Source: a virus
Taxonomy: Duplodnaviria; Heunggongvirae; Uroviricota; Caudoviricetes
Strand: one strand, 5' to 3'
Virus record (IMG/VR): IMGVR_UViG_3300028888_000058
Location: 103,060-148,414 of that record
DNA: 45,355 bases
Part shown: piece by piece, positions 6,525-42,354 of the stretch
Layout: each line of letters starts with the position of its first letter
Numbering within the stretch: the stretch's first letter is position 1
Notes under the pieces: model-generated
Databases searched by the model: none
Told to the model about the DNA's origin: nothing
The model's input: the letters and a program-made list of their open reading frames with translations, nothing else
Position numbers and translations under genes: made by a program

Positions 6525-6827
6525 ATGAAAGATATAGTAAATTTTATTAATGAAGCAATAGATAAAGTTTTAAGTGGATTCTGTATTATAGATATGTCAG
6601 ATGAATCATTAGTATCAAATTGGGGCACTGGTGATCTTGTGAAATGCATACATGAAATTCAAAAACTTAAGAAAGAAAACCAAGATAAAGAATATTGGAT
6701 AGTTGCTCAATATAATGAAATATATGATTTAGAAGATACTGGCAATTATAGAGTCTTATCTTCAAGAGAATATAATGAAAATGAAACAGATTTTGGCATT
6801 AATCCAAAATTCAAAGAATACTTATAA
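6525..6827 (+). CDS. tagged hypothetical protein
   Basis: 100 aa; MKDIVNFINE; last gene of cluster 1. Confidence 0.8.
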   Translation: MKDIVNFINEAIDKVLSGFCIIDMSDESLVSNWGTGDLVKCIHEIQKLKKENQDKEYWIVAQYNEIYDLEDTGNYRVLSSREYNENETDFGINPKFKEYL

Positions 6828-6850
6828 TTAATTTACAATTTTAATAATAT

Positions 6851-6891
6851 TAGACAATATTTAGAACTTTTTCTAAGTATTGTCTATTTTT
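6851..6891 (+). terminator. intrinsic terminator closing tagged cluster 1
   Basis: TAGACAATA-TTTAGAA-CTTT-TTCTAAG-TATTGTCTA hairpin followed by TTTTT. Confidence 0.65.
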
Positions 6892-6918
6892 GATATAAAT
6901 ATATAGACTTAAATTTAA

Positions 6919-7362
6919 ATGGATAATAATCAATGGCATCAGGCAAAAGTTCCGTTCTTTTTAGAAGTTGAATATTATGATGAATATAATCCTGATACTG
7001 AAAGTAAAATAATGAAATCTTTATTAAGAAATGAAGATATTCTTCCAGGATTACGGGTTAATAAAATGTTTGCTAATTGTATCGATAAAGATGTATTAAT
7101 AGCAGATGAACTTCAAAATGATTTAAAACATTTACAAGAAGAATTTGAAAAGTTTAAGAATAAGTATGCTAATTTTGCTGATGATAGAACAAAAGACAAT
7201 TGCATGAATAAATTAGGTATGGAACCTAAAGATTTTTCAGATATGGAAAAATATCATGCAGCAGAAATTAAGAAAGCAACAGAAAATAATAAAACACCAA
7301 TTATAGATAGTAATATAGGAAGATATAAATCATATGACGACCCATCAAATTTTCCGCAATGA
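6919..7362 (+). CDS. hypothetical protein
   Basis: 147 aa ORF at the start of an operon; no recognised motif. Confidence 0.7.
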   Translation: MDNNQWHQAKVPFFLEVEYYDEYNPDTESKIMKSLLRNEDILPGLRVNKMFANCIDKDVLIADELQNDLKHLQEEFEKFKNKYANFADDRTKDNCMNKLGMEPKDFSDMEKYHAAEIKKATENNKTPIIDSNIGRYKSYDDPSNFPQ

Positions 7363-7616
7363 TACCAGGATTTGTTTCAATATATATAGATAAAGAAAAT
7401 TATAAGCATTTATATTTTTATCCAGGAATAGATGAAAATAATGAATATATTTATCATAACATAGATTGGTCAGATTACTCATTTAAAATTGATGAAACCC
7501 GTAATGAAGATGGATCAATAGATTATAAGTTTTATGATAAATCAATTGTTCGTATAACTTGTAAATTAATAGATAATAAAGATAAACAACGCATAGAAGT
7601 TCTTAATTTTAAATAG
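7359..7616 (+). CDS. hypothetical protein
   Basis: 85 aa; ATGA overlap; ends TAG followed by TAA. Confidence 0.65.
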   Translation: MIPGFVSIYIDKENYKHLYFYPGIDENNEYIYHNIDWSDYSFKIDETRNEDGSIDYKFYDKSIVRITCKLIDNKDKQRIEVLNFK

Positions 7617-7624
7617 TAAAACTT

Positions 7625-7876
7625 ATGAAAGGTAATTGTATAGATAAGTTTATTGAAAAACGATTAAATAAAAGATTAATTGAGTTATTAAAAGTTCGTC
7701 TTAATATTAGACATCGTAAAATAATACGTGAAGAAACAAATGATTACTTTAATACAGGATGTTACGAACAAGATTTTTCGGATATTATAAAATTAAGAAA
7801 TATTGCAAAAGAACTTGAATTAAATTGTAATAAGTTTTTAGAACGTATATCAGAGCAGTATAGTAAATTAAATTGA
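7625..7876 (+). CDS. hypothetical protein
   Basis: 83 aa, tightly packed. Confidence 0.65.
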   Translation: MKGNCIDKFIEKRLNKRLIELLKVRLNIRHRKIIREETNDYFNTGCYEQDFSDIIKLRNIAKELELNCNKFLERISEQYSKLN

Positions 7877-7891
7877 TATGGTAAACAATAT

Positions 7892-8200
7892 ATGAAATAT
7901 AAAATAATCAAAAAGCATTCAAAGACATTAAAAGTTACACACCCAGGTAAATTTCCAGATAGTGAAAAATATATACCTGAAAAAACTTCAATTGAAAGAA
8001 GCGAATGGTATGAAGTAAAACGTAAAGGTCGTATATTTGGATTTTGGCATAAGGTAGGACATGAATGTGGTTATGAAGGAGAAAGAATCCAACATACAAC
8101 TCATACTTTAGATGAAATGAAAAATTACATCAAAGATTGGCATGAAGTTCATTATGGAGATAAATGTAAATGTGAAATAATCGAAAAATTTAAATTATGA
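7892..8200 (+). CDS. hypothetical protein
   Basis: 102 aa. Confidence 0.7.
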   Translation: MKYKIIKKHSKTLKVTHPGKFPDSEKYIPEKTSIERSEWYEVKRKGRIFGFWHKVGHECGYEGERIQHTTHTLDEMKNYIKDWHEVHYGDKCKCEIIEKFKL

Positions 8201-14304: not shown

Positions 14305-15018
14305 ATGGAACTTAGAATTGGTTTTGCAAACAAGTATTACACCCTTTGGGAGTATTCCGAAGAAGTAATGGAAACATCTCGCGGTAAGTTCTTTGTTAAG
14401 CGTTACAAATACCGTCATAATCTTTCATTTGATAAGGACCGTGCATTTGCTAAGTTCCCAGGAGCTGTATTTGATGAAACTTTGGTTGGTCGCCGTGGTT
14501 CTTGGTCAACTTCCTCTCGTATTATTGATAATAATAAGTTCCATGTTGGAAAGTATGCCAACAAATTGTTCATAGATGTTGATGATTACGACTACATGAT
14601 GTGGTTCGCAAATAATTGCTGTAATGATGAACAGAAATCAAATCTTGTTCCTATTTTGATTGAGCACGGATACGGTTATATTCCTGGTGATGATTATCTA
14701 AAGTCTCCGAAAGACATAGAGGAATATAATAAGGAGCAGGAGAAGATCAATTATGGTAAGTCTAAATTGGAGAAGGGAATTCCATTTATTGTTACTTTTA
14801 CTCGTAACCTTAATAATGAAGGTGAGTATTTTGTTGAGCCACTCGGTATTACTGTTAAGTTCCAGAATTTCAATATTTACTATTATCATGAATTCCCTTA
14901 CGGTCTTCCTTGTGATAATAACGGAAAGGGCAAGAGAATTAAAAATCGTCAGGTAATGATTGGACAGTATATTGCTGACGGTGAGACTGCAATTGTGACA
15001 GATTGGAAATATGTTTAA
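14305..15018 (+). CDS. hypothetical protein with host-like codon usage
   Basis: 237 aa; many CGT/CGC, TTC, TAC, AAG, CAG codons; FHVGKYANKLFIDVDDYDYMMW weakly resembles FGKYKG...D.P..YL.W motifs. Confidence 0.75.
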   Translation: MELRIGFANKYYTLWEYSEEVMETSRGKFFVKRYKYRHNLSFDKDRAFAKFPGAVFDETLVGRRGSWSTSSRIIDNNKFHVGKYANKLFIDVDDYDYMMWFANNCCNDEQKSNLVPILIEHGYGYIPGDDYLKSPKDIEEYNKEQEKINYGKSKLEKGIPFIVTFTRNLNNEGEYFVEPLGITVKFQNFNIYYYHEFPYGLPCDNNGKGKRIKNRQVMIGQYIADGETAIVTDWKYV

Positions 15019-26337: not shown

Positions 26338-28425
26338 ATGAAAACAATAGTTATAAATAAATCAGGTGTTCCTGCTAGTCCATTAGTCGCTGCAGAATCA
26401 ATTTATAATGTTTCACCATTATTTGCATCTTCTAAACCAGTAGGTCCATGGGTTTATGCAAAAAAGAACACTACTGATGTTAATGAAAATATAGAATTAC
26501 CATATTCTGTTAATAGAATTGATGGACATTCTGGAAACTATGCAACAGGTTATTTTACATTTACATCAACAATTACTATTCATAAGTTACAACCAACTTA
26601 TCTTTGGTTTGACCATGCAGATCATTCTGCAGAAGTATATATTGGAGAAACATTGGTAACTAAACACTGGGGTGGATATAATGCATTCTTTGTAGATATA
26701 ACTGATTATATTCAAGTTGGCACAAATAATTTAACTGTTAAAATCAAAAATAATGAAGGTAATAATCTTCCACCCGCAGCTGGTGACTTCAATCGTAATG
26801 CAACATTAGGTAAAGTTAAATTATTGACTAGCCCAGTATTGCCATCGCCTGAATATGGATATGATGGATTCCATATTACATCTACAGTAACTGATGCACA
26901 AGCAATTATGACAGTTAAAACAACAATTCCAACATATGCTGATGTTGTATTAAAAGTCAATGATGAAGAATTTAGTTATGTAGAAAGAAAATTTGGTAAA
27001 GGTGATATTACATTTACAGTTACTATAGATAACCCTCATCTTTGGAATGGTACATTAGATCCACACCTTTATGATGTGACTTTAGAATTATATTATAATG
27101 AAGAACTTAATCTTCAGTTGAAACGTCCTTATGGATTAAGATACTTTGATTATGTTTGGGATGATGCAACTATTGAAGGATATGATTCAGAACATCCATA
27201 TACAGGTTTCTTATTAAATGGCAGCCCATATTTGTTAAGAGGTGTTTGTTCTCATCATGATTTAGCAAATAAAGCTAATGCATTGACTGTAGAAGACATC
27301 AATAATGATTTTGATATCATAACTGAACTAGGTGCTAATTTCTTACGTCTTGCTCATTACCCTCATCCAAAACAAGTTTATGACTATTGTGATAGATTAG
27401 GTATTATTGTACAGACTGAAGCACAATGGGTAAACTCTTCAACATTAACAATGCCAGAAGCATATTGGACTCATCTAGGTGAAGAAATTGAAGATATGGT
27501 TAATCAACATTATAATCACCCATGTATATTATTCTGGGGTGTTGGTAATGAAATTAATACATCAGTTACAAATTCAACTGAAGGTAAAGATTTTGTTAAA
27601 TCAAAAATTGAAGGATATAGAACACAAATTAGAACATTAATGCCAGGCGCTTGGGTAGGCTATACTGTATCACATGGAACAGATAACGGATTAGGAGTAT
27701 TTAATAATCCTACTGTTGATTGGGTTGGAAACAATATATATGTAGGTTGGTACATAGATCAAAATTCAAACAATCCAACAAACCGTCTTAATACAAGAAT
27801 AAATAATAATGGTACTACACCAACTGCATATTCAGAATATGGATGCGGCGGTTCTTCAACATGTCACTCAACAAGTTATATGTCAACTACGACACGTGGA
27901 AATAACCCAAGACATGATATTGAATATATGATGTGGTTACACGAAGGACATATTGCAGCTATTAAGAATTTCCCACAATTGTTATTTACTTCTCAATGGC
28001 AATTATTTGATATTGCTGTTTCTAATAGACAAGAAGGTTATAAAGTATGTTTGGATGATGAAACTGTTACTGATAATAATGATTTGAAATTCTTAAATAA
28101 CAAAGGATTGGTTGAAAGAGATCATAAAACAAAGAAAGATACATTCTATATTTATAAAGCATGGTGGAATCCAACTCCATTTGTACATATCTGTCAAAAG
28201 AATTTTACAAAGACTTCAGATAGAGTTATCAAATGCTATACAAATTCAACAGAGCAATTCTCATTATATGTAAATCCAACTGGTGAAAATGATGTTCCTG
28301 TAGAAACACTTACACCAACTAATAATATTTTAGAATTTACTGCTGCAACATTTAGTTCAGGAGATGTAATCGTAGTAACTAATGGAACAGTTGAAGATAC
28401 TTTTGTTATAGATCCAACTGAATAA
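26338..28425 (+). CDS. glycoside hydrolase family 2 (beta-galactosidase/beta-glucuronidase-like)
   Basis: H.GGY..F..DIT, LNG.PY.LRGVCSHHD, GANFLRLAHYPH, HYNHPCILFWGVGNE (acid/base Glu), SEYG (nucleophile Glu), NNKGLV..D.KTKKD.FY.YKAWWN; no signal peptide. Confidence 0.92.
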   Translation: MKTIVINKSGVPASPLVAAESIYNVSPLFASSKPVGPWVYAKKNTTDVNENIELPYSVNRIDGHSGNYATGYFTFTSTITIHKLQPTYLWFDHADHSAEVYIGETLVTKHWGGYNAFFVDITDYIQVGTNNLTVKIKNNEGNNLPPAAGDFNRNATLGKVKLLTSPVLPSPEYGYDGFHITSTVTDAQAIMTVKTTIPTYADVVLKVNDEEFSYVERKFGKGDITFTVTIDNPHLWNGTLDPHLYDVTLELYYNEELNLQLKRPYGLRYFDYVWDDATIEGYDSEHPYTGFLLNGSPYLLRGVCSHHDLANKANALTVEDINNDFDIITELGANFLRLAHYPHPKQVYDYCDRLGIIVQTEAQWVNSSTLTMPEAYWTHLGEEIEDMVNQHYNHPCILFWGVGNEINTSVTNSTEGKDFVKSKIEGYRTQIRTLMPGAWVGYTVSHGTDNGLGVFNNPTVDWVGNNIYVGWYIDQNSNNPTNRLNTRINNNGTTPTAYSEYGCGGSSTCHSTSYMSTTTRGNNPRHDIEYMMWLHEGHIAAIKNFPQLLFTSQWQLFDIAVSNRQEGYKVCLDDETVTDNNDLKFLNNKGLVERDHKTKKDTFYIYKAWWNPTPFVHICQKNFTKTSDRVIKCYTNSTEQFSLYVNPTGENDVPVETLTPTNNILEFTAATFSSGDVIVVTNGTVEDTFVIDPTE

Positions 28426-38064: not shown

Positions 38065-39246
38065 ATGGAACAACAATATTATTGTAGTTTTTGCGGTAAA
38101 AGTTTTGAAGATAGTAGTATATTACTTGCGGGTAATGCGGGTCATATTTGTCCAGAATGCTTAAAGAGATGTAATGCTGAACTAGAGAAATATGAATCAA
38201 AAGTAAATGATAAGACTATGGAAGGAATTCCTAAGCCTAAAGAAATTAAAGAATTCTTAGATCAATATATCATAGGACAAGACAGAGTTAAAGAACGTGT
38301 TGCAGTTGCTGTATATAATCATTATAAGAGAATCAATACAGAAATAGAAGATGATGTAGAAATTGAGAAATCTAATATCTTGATATTAGGAGCAACAGGA
38401 ACGGGCAAAACGATGATAGCAAGAACTATTGCTAAAATGCTTGATGTTCCATTTTGCATCGGAGATGCTACAGTATTGACAGAATCAGGATACGTTGGCG
38501 AGGATGTTGAATCATTATTGGTTAATCTTTATCAAGCATCTGATTATGATGTTGAAAAAACAGAACGTGGAATTGTATTTATTGATGAGATAGATAAAAT
38601 TGCCCGTAAAGGCGATAATGCAAGTATAACGCGTGATGTATCAGGTGAAGGTGTTCAACAAGGATTACTTAAATTACTTGAAGGATCAATTGTATCTATT
38701 CCGCCAAAAGGAGGTCGTAAGCACCCAGATACGCCGCTTGTAAAAATCAACACAAAGAATATATTGTTCATATGTGGTGGAGCATTCGTAGGCATTGAAA
38801 ACAAAATTAAGCAAAGATGCAATAAACAAGTAATCGGATTCAATTCAGATACAGATCATACGATGAAGGATGAAGACTATATGGCAAAGATAACCCCGCT
38901 TGATTTGAAATCTTTTGGACTTATTCCTGAAATCATTGGGCGATTGCCAATCATTACATATACTGATGAATTAGACAGAGATTCATTAATTAAGATATTG
39001 ACAGAACCTAAGAATGCATTAATCAAACAATATAAACGAATATTCAATTTAGATAATATAAAGTTAGACTTCACACAAGATGCTTTAGATTATATTGTTG
39101 ATAAGACTATGGAAAACAAACTAGGTGCTCGTGGTCTTCGCGGAACAATGGAAAACATAATGAATAAAGCAATGTTTAATATGCCGTCAGAAGAAGTAAC
39201 TGAATTTACTGTTGATTTAGATTATGTTAAAAAACAAATTGGCTAA
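38065..39246 (+). CDS. clpX: ATP-dependent Clp protease ATP-binding subunit ClpX
   Basis: YCSFCGK...ICPEC zinc-binding domain, GATGTGKT, IVFIDEIDKIARK, RDVSGEGVQQGLLKLLEG, IGF loop (QVIGFNS), GARGLRG. Confidence 0.96.
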   Translation: MEQQYYCSFCGKSFEDSSILLAGNAGHICPECLKRCNAELEKYESKVNDKTMEGIPKPKEIKEFLDQYIIGQDRVKERVAVAVYNHYKRINTEIEDDVEIEKSNILILGATGTGKTMIARTIAKMLDVPFCIGDATVLTESGYVGEDVESLLVNLYQASDYDVEKTERGIVFIDEIDKIARKGDNASITRDVSGEGVQQGLLKLLEGSIVSIPPKGGRKHPDTPLVKINTKNILFICGGAFVGIENKIKQRCNKQVIGFNSDTDHTMKDEDYMAKITPLDLKSFGLIPEIIGRLPIITYTDELDRDSLIKILTEPKNALIKQYKRIFNLDNIKLDFTQDALDYIVDKTMENKLGARGLRGTMENIMNKAMFNMPSEEVTEFTVDLDYVKKQIG

Positions 39247-40035: not shown

Positions 40036-40806
40036 ATGTCAAAATTATTTAAAGATCTTAAAGAAGGAAGTCCAGTATTCATGGTAAAATATACTTCTAA
40101 TGTTCCTGATTATTGTAGAGATGATATTAGAAAGTTATATGTTGATAAGATTATATATGGAACAGAATTTGAAGGTGGTGATCTATATAAGTTAAAAAAG
40201 ATTCATGTTTTTGGTGGTGATGAAGTTTATGAAATAAGACATGAAAATAGTGATAGACATGATAGCCTTATTTTAGATTCTGATTTTGCTTATGGAAACA
40301 ATGGAACTAATACAGAAGGATATAGATTTTATACAACATATCAAGGTGCATTGAATTATCTTATTCAAGAGATTCAAGTAAATATAAGTAAACAATTAAA
40401 AAGACTTGAAGATATTGAAACAAGATTAGGTGTATCAGATGAAAACCTTATAACTATTAAGACTAAAAGTGTATATGAGCAAAAGGATCATTGGAGACAT
40501 CTAAAGAAAACTGAAATATATGATACTTGCTGGTTTGATGATAAGGTAAATTGCAATTTTATTGATGAAAACCTTAAAGATAAGAAATACGAAGTTTGGT
40601 CTAAATATGTTGAGTATGATGCGTTAGGAAGAAAAACAAACCAAGATTCTAAATACATTAAAGATGTATTAGTAAAGAAATTTGATACTTTACAAGAAGC
40701 CAATGCATGGGTATTCAAAAATGATAAGTCAAGAACTCCGTGTGAAGAAGGAACACCATTCTTTGAAGGAGATCATTATTATGTAAAAGAAGCAGAAATT
40801 AAATAA
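40036..40806 (+). CDS. hypothetical protein (FxDLKxGD-start family, with extra C-terminal domain)
   Basis: N-term LFKDLKEGSPVFMV; FYTTYQGALNYL followed by a helix. Confidence 0.7.
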   Translation: MSKLFKDLKEGSPVFMVKYTSNVPDYCRDDIRKLYVDKIIYGTEFEGGDLYKLKKIHVFGGDEVYEIRHENSDRHDSLILDSDFAYGNNGTNTEGYRFYTTYQGALNYLIQEIQVNISKQLKRLEDIETRLGVSDENLITIKTKSVYEQKDHWRHLKKTEIYDTCWFDDKVNCNFIDENLKDKKYEVWSKYVEYDALGRKTNQDSKYIKDVLVKKFDTLQEANAWVFKNDKSRTPCEEGTPFFEGDHYYVKEAEIK

Positions 40807-40808
40807 TT

Positions 40809-41987
40809 ATGAATAAGATAGCATTATTACTTTCAGGAGGAGTTGATTCATCAGTTGCATTGCATATGCTTTGTAAAACAGGAGAGAAGCCTGATTGTTT
40901 TTATATACATATAGGTCCTGATGAGAAGGATTCATATAGTTGTACATCCGAGGAGGATATTGAAATGGCTTCCGCAGTTGCTGCAAAGTATGGATGCAAG
41001 TTTGATATAATTGATCTTCATAAGGAGTATTGGGATAATGTTGTTAAGTACACAATGGATAAGGTTAAGCGTGGGTTTACACCTAATCCTGATGTTATGT
41101 GCAATACACTTATTAAGTTTGGAGCATTCTATGATAAGATTGGATATAAATATGATTATATTGCAACAGGTCATTATGCAACAAAAGTAGGATATGTAAC
41201 ATGTAAATGTAAGAATGCTACTGACTGGGTTTCGTCTGATTTTTTTAATCCTTCTGATGTTAAGTGGTGGATATGTCCTGCTAAGGACCCTGTAAAGGAC
41301 CAAGTTGATTTTATTGCAAATATTGATACAAAGAAGGTGCCTCTTGAGAAGATTATATTTCCAATTGGTAATCTTATGAAGGACGAGGTTCGTAAGATTG
41401 CTGAGGAGAATCATCTTGTCAATGCAAAGCGAAAGGATTCACAGGGCATTTGTTTCTTAGGTAAGATTAATTATAATGATTATATTGAGAAGTATCTTGG
41501 AAAGATGTGTGGAAATATTGTTGATATTGATACTGGAAATATCTTAGGAATGCATTATGGACATTGGTTCCACACAATTGGTCAACGTAGAGGTCTACAG
41601 CTTTCAGGAGGTCCTTGGTATGTAGTTAGTAAGGATGCATTAAATAATATTGTATATGTATCAAAGAATTATGATAAGACTAAGGTAACTGAGTTTACTG
41701 TTAATGATATCAATTGGCTTACTGATAATATGATTGATACTTGGTATCATCATACTTATACTGGTGATGGAGATCCAAATTTTATTTGTGATGTAACATT
41801 TAAGATTCGTCATTCTCCAGATACATATACTGGTAAGATGTATTTCAATAATTCAGATACTGATGTTAAGATCATTTCAGATACACCTGTAACTGCAGCA
41901 TCTGGGCAATTCTGTACTTTATATGATAATGATTATTATCATTGCTATGGATGCGGAGAAATTTTGAATAACCGTTTAAATAAATAA
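40809..41987 (+). CDS. mnmA: tRNA-specific 2-thiouridylase MnmA (Bacteroidota-type)
   Basis: PP-loop SGGVDSS, PNPDVMCN, IATGHYA, KDQ, DSQGICF, HTIGQRRGL, GQ(F)C; both catalytic Cys present. Confidence 0.95.
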   Translation: MNKIALLLSGGVDSSVALHMLCKTGEKPDCFYIHIGPDEKDSYSCTSEEDIEMASAVAAKYGCKFDIIDLHKEYWDNVVKYTMDKVKRGFTPNPDVMCNTLIKFGAFYDKIGYKYDYIATGHYATKVGYVTCKCKNATDWVSSDFFNPSDVKWWICPAKDPVKDQVDFIANIDTKKVPLEKIIFPIGNLMKDEVRKIAEENHLVNAKRKDSQGICFLGKINYNDYIEKYLGKMCGNIVDIDTGNILGMHYGHWFHTIGQRRGLQLSGGPWYVVSKDALNNIVYVSKNYDKTKVTEFTVNDINWLTDNMIDTWYHHTYTGDGDPNFICDVTFKIRHSPDTYTGKMYFNNSDTDVKIISDTPVTAASGQFCTLYDNDYYHCYGCGEILNNRLNK

Positions 41988-41991
41988 GAAT

Positions 41992-42354
41992 ATGACTATT
42001 TTGATTTTGATTATTTGTGCACTTGTATTAATAAGTGTCGTTGACTATGATATTAGAAATCGTACAAAGAAACTAGAAAATAAATGCAAGAACTGTTGGC
42101 CAGTTACATTTAAGTTAACAGAAGATGGCTATTTAGTATATTCTGTTAATGATAAAATTTGGACTGAAATTATTAAGTATTCAGAAAAAAATGGAATTCC
42201 TAGATTGGATTATATGAAATTTAATAGTTATGATTCTAATTATAAAAATTTTACAAAAACATTAAGTACAATACAAAATTGCCATTTATGGAATACAAGA
42301 GAATTTAATAAATATAAAGAAGGTCTTAAAAAGTATTTGGAAAACAATAAATGA
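41992..42354 (+). CDS. hypothetical protein with N-terminal TM helix
   Basis: MTILILIICALVLISVV. Confidence 0.65.
   Translation: MTILILIICALVLISVVDYDIRNRTKKLENKCKNCWPVTFKLTEDGYLVYSVNDKIWTEIIKYSEKNGIPRLDYMKFNSYDSNYKNFTKTLSTIQNCHLWNTREFNKYKEGLKKYLENNK

Follow-up and report, generated by a model that had tools for sequence, protein, structure and literature searches.

The mnmA locus and its phage

The window, i.e. the whole stretch of 45,355 nt of caudoviral DNA under analysis, has a GC content of 27% and encodes a tRNA 2-thiouridylase, MnmA, in a run of co-oriented genes (Table 1). It also carries recA, clpX, two topoisomerase subunits and a sigma factor, as well as a glycoside hydrolase family 2 gene (26338-28425, + strand) that follows two large ORFs without assigned function. 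MnmA scores above the curated equivalog cut-offs of NF001138 (303.3 versus 284) and TIGR00420 (302.4 versus 236.95), and its HUP, PRC-barrel and beta-barrel domains (PF03054, PF20259 and PF20258) are all above cut-off. The three-domain layout, the PP-loop, the DxxC motif and the second Cys are common to bacterial MnmA (E. coli, PDB 2DER; NF001138, TIGR00420). The protein differs from the latter in being phage-borne, in an insertion of about 20 residues and in having about half the Glu, which makes up 3.3% of the residues in the window protein. The enzyme is a member of the MnmA family with an active site that, by alignment, is intact, and it would be expected to make s2U34 on tRNA-Lys, tRNA-Glu and tRNA-Gln. 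Cysteine desulfurase and MnmG have no match in the related phage G001, hence the phage MnmA would need a host sulfur supply; TilS has no match in G001 either. An ORF antisense to mnmA (40932-41414) was rejected as a gene: it is not conserved, and the stop-free length in that frame varies from 45 to 176 codons among orthologues.

Table 1. Coordinates of mnmA, its parts and its neighbours in the window, and of tilS genes in other phages.
Feature	Position	Strand	Basis or remark
mnmA, tRNA 2-thiouridylase (392 aa)	40809..41987	+	Profiles NF001138 and TIGR00420; codon counts
PP-loop SGGVDS (residues 9-14)	40833..40850	+	Invariant in 43 phage homologues
D-x-x-C motif (D95, C98)	41091..41102	+	Aligns with PNPDILCN of E. 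coli MnmA; invariant in 43 homologues
Second catalytic Cys (C215) in DSQGICF	41451..41453	+	Invariant in 43 homologues; aligned to E. coli MnmA
First fifth of the mnmA ORF, strongest bias across orthologues	40809..41043	+	Codon counts by fifth
Insertion of ~20 residues after ATGHYA	41190..41252	+	In the window's phage clade; absent from aligned bacterial MnmAs
Upstream co-oriented gene (gap 2 nt)	40036..40806	+	Internal control at baseline: AAA 19/AAG 11, GAA 19/GAG 3
Downstream co-oriented gene (gap 4 nt)	41992..42354	+	Internal control at baseline: AAA 11/AAG 5, GAA 7/GAG 0
clpX, cellular-type gene	38065..39246	+	Host-residue control; baseline in 13 orthologues: AAG 0.32, GAG 0.11
Phage tilS, ATA-poor, AAA/GAA kept	L320:8965-9576, L321:8950-9996, L322:14968-15555
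Phage tilS, ATA-poor, AAA/GAA kept	L323:14956-15552, G008 171980-172624

The window topoisomerase is closest to those of Lak megaphages of Prevotella (54%), and these records gave no MnmA match. DNA nearly identical to the window occurs in sheep and goat gut metagenomes, and the nearest bacterial MnmAs come from rumen Prevotella MAGs (50-51% identity). Together, these observations suggest that the host is probably Prevotella or another Bacteroidales. Contigs with close MnmA homologues reach 474 kb. Contigs from RNA libraries of one sheep sample span mnmA, a kind of evidence that cannot show transcription, its level or its timing.

The window has no tRNA genes, and we took the tRNA set from the relative G001 (376 kb, 98% complete, MnmA 71% identical) rather than from the window's own genome. 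G001 encodes 65 tRNAs, including four Lys-UUU, three Glu-UUC and three Gln-UUG, as well as the C34 counterparts of all three. A Prevotella genome (G003) has three Lys-CUU and one Lys-UUU, with Glu-CUC, Glu-UUC, Gln-CUG and Gln-UUG. A product-independent route through C34 tRNAs is therefore present in this Prevotella, a stand-in for the presumed host, and in G001. Lak-type TAG recoding was rejected for G001, with coding densities of 0.88 and 0.89 under codes 11 and 15.

Codon usage of mnmA within the window

The first-pass annotation had counted by hand 5 AAA and 32 AAG, 2 GAA and 11 GAG, 3 CAA and 2 CAG, one TAC and four GAC codons in mnmA, and these counts are exact. The G-ending codons amount to 32/37 for Lys, 11/13 for Glu and 2/5 for Gln, against 372/1399 (0.27), 96/1050 (0.09) and 71/307 (0.23) in the remaining window genes. 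The difference is significant for Lys (Fisher p = 9e-14) and Glu (p = 4e-10), and Gln is unbiased (p = 0.33), as had been claimed. The gene-by-gene comparison proposed at that stage singles out mnmA as the window outlier: its G-ending share of Lys and Glu codons (0.86) is the first of 56 genes, for a median of 0.17. The summed frequency of AAA, GAA and CAA per codon is 0.026, the lowest of 57 window genes (median 0.177). Hence, mnmA does not qualify as a modification-tunable transcript: the dependent codons are strongly depleted, not enriched.

The annotation was also right that this is not a shift in GC, since GC3 outside the Lys, Glu, Gln, Met and Trp codons is 0.09 in mnmA and 0.11 in the other window ORFs. 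Next-base context was rejected as a cause because the bias is present in every such context. The downstream gene is at baseline and the tagged genes are dominated by AAA and GAA (338 AAA/58 AAG and 255 GAA/14 GAG in 20 N-terminally tagged genes), both as first described. These 20 genes (673-33224) share an N-terminal MK(D/N)I...E tag and form the class richest in AAA, GAA and CAA (AAG 0.15, GAG 0.05, CAG 0.07). The second strongest bias of the window is that of a 237-aa protein (14305-15018, + strand; AAG 15/22, GAG 9/18, CAG 5/5), which has no match in Pfam or NCBIfam. Its shift is general and host-like, and the gene is probably a member of a host-tuned class.

Conservation among orthologues

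We analysed 36 distinct phage orthologues of mnmA (64-91% pairwise identity), which form one clade and are not independent samples. Pooled, they have AAG at 0.79 and GAG at 0.62, whereas the genes that flank them are at 0.28 and 0.15. No shift is seen in AAC, TAC, GAC or CAC. AAA and GAA are avoided in this set, and CAA is not (CAG 0.23 versus 0.19 in the flanks). There is a mild additional lean away from AGA, TTA and ATA. The bias declines along the ORF: AAG goes from 0.92 in the first fifth to 0.71 in the last, and GAG from 0.77 to 0.42. Even in alignment columns where Lys and Glu seldom occur, their codons are G-biased (0.54 and 0.43). The co-oriented neighbours of these genes are at baseline (AAG/GAG 0.35/0.16 upstream, 0.22/0.12 downstream), as are phage clpX, recA and gyrA (AAG 0.32-0.34, GAG 0.03-0.19). 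One contig (L057) has a 145-aa gene upstream of mnmA with AAG at 15/16 but GAA at 11/12; the bias of its mnmA is the weakest after correction.

The competing explanation named in the first-pass annotation was that mnmA had been acquired recently and still carries the codon usage of a host. It draws on the fact that the nearest bacterial MnmAs are from Prevotella, a lineage preferring AAG and GAG. However, identity to the nearest bacterial MnmA is only 51%, and the phage orthologues form a single clade (100/100) in the MnmA tree; this clade has a long stem and groups with the MnmA of Bacteroidales. Their four-fold sites are near saturation (identity of 0.45-0.53 in most pairs, for 0.43 expected), so that the bias is no remnant of a recent acquisition. 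The turnover at other synonymous sites, which are fully AT-rich, implies that the Lys and Glu bias has been maintained. Furthermore, host mnmA genes have GAG at only 0.48-0.58. Saturation, monophyly, the unshifted NNC codons and the AT-rich remaining sites refute this explanation, which we hold to be almost certainly wrong.

Specificity of the bias

Among 269 genes of G001, mnmA ranks first for Lys and Glu bias, tied with one gene of no assigned function (median 0.13); genes were called by a simple ORF script and the ranks are approximate. The first-pass annotation had regarded a bias shared by many phage genes as fatal to its reading. About a dozen G001 genes do share it, in a weaker form apart from the one tie, and this class is also low in ATA, AGA and TTA. 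It includes TROVE, an RNA ligase, RtcB, PncB, an isochorismatase-family (PncA-like) protein, Nudix, NadE, SPFH and a DnaK-like protein, the latter judged from its sequence. The genes for NAD salvage (PncA-like, PncB, NadE) and RNA repair (TROVE, RNA ligase, RtcB), at 104929-110516, 129410-130858, 157278-158111 and 6647-7963 of G001, lean to AAG and GAG, as though designed for translation after the loss of U34 tRNAs.

These observations raise the possibility that mnmA is nothing more than a gene translated early or strongly, with codons adapted to the tRNAs of the host. The AAG and GAG frequencies of Prevotella (0.70 and 0.63) are near those of the phage mnmA, and across G001 genes the Lys and Glu bias correlates with avoidance of ATA, AGA and TTA (r = 0.73). 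Early and late codon usage is known to differ in phages, late genes relying on phage tRNAs (PMC12482277). Yet Prevotella prefers CAG (0.77), TTC, AAC and ATC equally strongly and mnmA does not follow, and the genes on either side of it in this run have baseline usage. Given the usage of the other codons, a model predicts AAG at 0.33 and GAG at 0.14 in mnmA, for 0.79 and 0.62 observed. The residuals of the window gene over this model correspond to z = 6.0 (AAG) and 6.6 (GAG), and none of 21 genes with a comparable avoidance of rare codons exceeds 0.47. The bias is thus specific to certain codons, given these residuals and the double dissociation between tilS and mnmA described below, with a mild AGA, TTA and ATA shift alongside. 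Tuning to the host is an improbable explanation.

Other phage lineages

A broader scan retrieved further phage MnmAs, at about 27-34% identity, which branch separately on the tree, several of them on long branches. In a 388 kb phage (G004), mnmA has AAG at 0.68, GAG at 0.83 and CAG at 0.56, against 0.21, 0.28 and 0.13. This is the only case where CAA is avoided alongside AAA and GAA, and it rests on nine codons for CAG. Another lineage (L195) has AAG at 0.66 and GAG at 0.65, against 0.38 and 0.21. We ranked mnmA by AAA, GAA and CAA density, lowest first, among genes of at least 250 aa in six genomes, two of which (G005 and G006) belong to one clade. It ranks 1/116 in G001, 1/114 in G004 and 1/29 in G006, so that, with the window, there are four sets of genes in which mnmA is the most depleted. 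It ranks 3/40 in G005, 3/42 in G007 and 27/64 in G008; the G007 gene has no AAG shift (0.17) and that of G008 is unremarkable. G001 and G004 are near-complete jumbo phages whose MnmAs have separate origins. A CCA-type nucleotidyltransferase two genes from the G004 mnmA (L186:12426-13754) has GAG at 21/25 (0.84), for 0.17 genome-wide. The MnmA matches labelled as phage in GenBank that we inspected were host DNA or had host flanks, and were excluded as replicates. For example, the mnmA region of Microcystis phage MaAM05 (MW495066, L159) carries icd, acnA, rpoD, ycf3, prs and trpG, and looks like a bacterial chromosome.

A second clade of jumbo phages, from freshwater (clade 2), has an MnmA closest to that of non-Bacteroidales Bacteroidota. 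Its pooled mnmA genes favour AAG (0.71 versus 0.31) and have even less GAG than their surroundings (0.05 versus 0.18, p = 0.001); CAG (0.05 versus 0.15) does not differ significantly. Among 121 Bacteroidota, the 23 genomes with the MnmA most similar to clade 2 gave no match for a Glu-CUC tRNA, in a pattern search that can miss tRNAs, and three of the 23 have Lys-CUU. These three prefer AAA (AAG 0.15-0.40 around ribosomal genes), and the eleven bacterial mnmA genes nearest to clade 2 have AAG at 0.10-0.45. The pattern search for Gln-CUG matched only 19 of the 121 genomes; it was probably insensitive and was left out. Clade 2 favours AAG where the nearest bacteria favour AAA. If its host is of this AAA-preferring kind, host preference cannot explain the AAG codons, but use of a C34 tRNA where one exists can.

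Low Glu content and the tilS genes

The avoidance may extend to the protein. Phage MnmAs contain 4.2-4.4% Glu, against 6.7-9% in bacterial relatives, and the deficit in clade 2 has p = 1e-14, for sequences that are not independent. Bacterial Glu is replaced by Asp in 24% of the cases in the phages of the window's clade (clade 1), and the reverse, Glu for bacterial Asp, is seen in 5%. An altered tRNA-binding surface could also have caused this difference.

The product of tilS is needed to decode AUA. In phage tilS genes of four lineages, ATA makes up 3 of 70 Ile codons, when 24 are expected, while AAA (46 versus 47 expected) and GAA (37 versus 40 expected) are at the expected level. The tilS of phage PA5oct has ATA at 2/15, for 56% in the flanks, yet keeps AAA at 19/21, contrary to what tuning to the host would give. 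Conversely, ATA is only mildly reduced in mnmA (0.27 versus 0.36). Of all the arguments that each enzyme avoids its own codons, this double dissociation is the strongest.

Possible causes of the avoidance

The Lys and Glu codon pattern of mnmA is real, conserved and convergent. In our view its best explanation is probably that selection keeps mnmA translatable before its product exists, its codon choice serving as a bootstrap. In this view, a jumbo phage with AT-rich DNA would fill the cell with mRNA rich in AAA and GAA. It would also produce numerous new tRNAs with U34 (Lys-UUU, Glu-UUC, Gln-UUG), which would function badly before thiolation. The phage would supply its own MnmA, from an mRNA whose AAG and GAG codons could be read by C34 tRNAs (Lys-CUU, Glu-CUC) without thiolation, and the protein may have shed much of its Glu in the process. 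MnmA synthesis could then proceed despite a shortage of thiolated tRNA, and the enzyme would subsequently raise the capacity for the remaining phage genes. Several observations count against this bootstrap. The window clade has no CAG shift despite the Gln-CUG tRNA of Prevotella G003, about a dozen G001 genes share the Lys and Glu bias, the mnmA genes of G007 and G008 show little of it, and mnmA also leans mildly away from AGA, TTA and ATA. The missing Gln bias would follow if thiolation mattered less for the charging of tRNA-Gln. The GluRS of E. coli uses the thiol as a major identity determinant (PMC9976931). According to a study in Yersinia (10.1101/2025.07.01.662621), cells without s2U pause at GAA, GAG, CAA, AAA and AAG and not at CAG, a codon with its own C34 tRNA; there, the effect of changing CAA to CAG in a reporter was small and not significant.

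The core of the first-pass reading, that selection favours translation of mnmA without s2U-tRNAs, survived every comparative test that we ran, but the feedback switch that it proposed goes beyond the data. The codon pattern implies that MnmA synthesis should be insensitive to thiolation. In a true switch, relative MnmA output would rise as s2U falls and decrease on recovery, thereby timing the transition to late translation. The stronger bias at the 5' end of mnmA would suit such a device, as would the opposite polarity of Glu codons in mnmA (0.62 GAG) and in the capsid and sheath genes of G001 (0.98 GAA; these have CAA at 0.91 and AAA at just 0.51). Against this, we saw no leader, attenuator or sensing element at mnmA, promoter-like matches are at chance level (75 versus 69), and insensitivity alone is robustness, not switching. 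A switch is thus very improbable.

The codon pattern fits scarce and attacked thiolated tRNAs alike, and by itself cannot tell them apart. If host anticodon nucleases destroy tRNA-Lys(UUU) and tRNA-Glu(UUC), the genes that rebuild the pool, including mnmA, might avoid AAA and GAA as a counter-defence. This overlaps with the bootstrap, except that the cause is cleavage and not missing thiolation. Evasion of nucleases would explain why Lys and Glu codons are affected and Gln codons are not: the preferred target of RloC was tRNA-Glu, followed by tRNA-Lys (PMC2610378), and PrrC and AriB cut tRNA-Lys(UUU), AriB whether it is thiolated or not (PMC12409363). It would also fit the co-biased RtcB, RNA ligase, TROVE, PncB, PncA-like protein, Nudix and NadE of G001, and the nucleotidyltransferase near the G004 mnmA. 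However, the bias of mnmA exceeds that of the RNA-repair genes themselves in both strength and specificity, thiolated tRNA-Lys is the better substrate of PrrC, and the avoidance of ATA in tilS is left unexplained. We consider this explanation unlikely, although it is the most probable of the rivals to the bootstrap.

Relation to known systems

Work by Baudouin-Cornu (2001) and Elf (2003) is said to have described cognate bias and starvation-resistant codons in genes of amino-acid biosynthesis. These enzymes are likewise encoded independently of what they supply, and the coding pattern of the phage mnmA works like this cognate bias. It differs in that a tRNA modification is what is scarce, the gene is viral, and the pattern concerns both codons and amino acids. 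It would thus extend the principle of not depending on what one makes from amino-acid synthesis to tRNA modification. We found no earlier description of this self-avoidance, the MnmA family itself being known, and no report of codon bias in phage mnmA in the open literature, most subscription papers lying outside this scope. Bacterial mnmA genes that we checked show no consistent avoidance of AAA and GAA relative to their own genomes, unlike the phage genes. To our knowledge, E. coli lacks Lys-CUU, and B. subtilis also lacks it, so there is no AAG escape in these species.

Codon-biased translation control by U34 modification has been studied for MnmA (10.64898/2026.08.15.745044), MnmE (PMC13733827) and TusB (10.1101/2025.07.01.662621). 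It concerns the modification considered here, and these six codons likewise decide which genes are sensitive. In their accessible parts, these studies describe sensitive cellular targets and do not treat the writer's own codons, whereas the phage mnmA is a depleted writer gene; the terms 'phage' and 'autoregul' are absent from the MnmA preprint. A precedent for self-feedback of trmD was not found in PMC8384417.

A general rule may hold in jumbo phages, although we propose it tentatively and with the odds slightly against it: the gene of each phage-encoded tRNA-maturing enzyme would do without the codons, and in part without the amino acid, for which that enzyme's product is needed, and would rely on whichever escape tRNAs the host has. 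If so, codon avoidance would predict the substrates of uncharacterised phage tRNA enzymes and the tRNA sets of unidentified hosts, and infection would have an order at the level of translation, with maturation enzymes first. This would provide a means, from sequence alone, to guess what phage translation enzymes act upon. A codon signature that is conserved, convergent and enzyme-specific bears on the reason for which large phages encode tRNAs and the enzymes that modify them: it provides indirect evidence that modified tRNA is in short supply during infection.

Large tRNA sets, RtcB, Rnl2 and TROVE have likewise been described in the arrays and RNA-repair kits of jumbo phages (Iyer et al. 2021, PMC7824862), a study that does not mention MnmA, thiolation or codons. 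The tRNA array of G001 (328000-347200; L114, L115) contains three Leu(AAG), one Ile(UAU) and a CUA suppressor-type tRNA, in a genome that reads well with code 11. In G004, an intein interrupts RtcB (112708-114909, L216).
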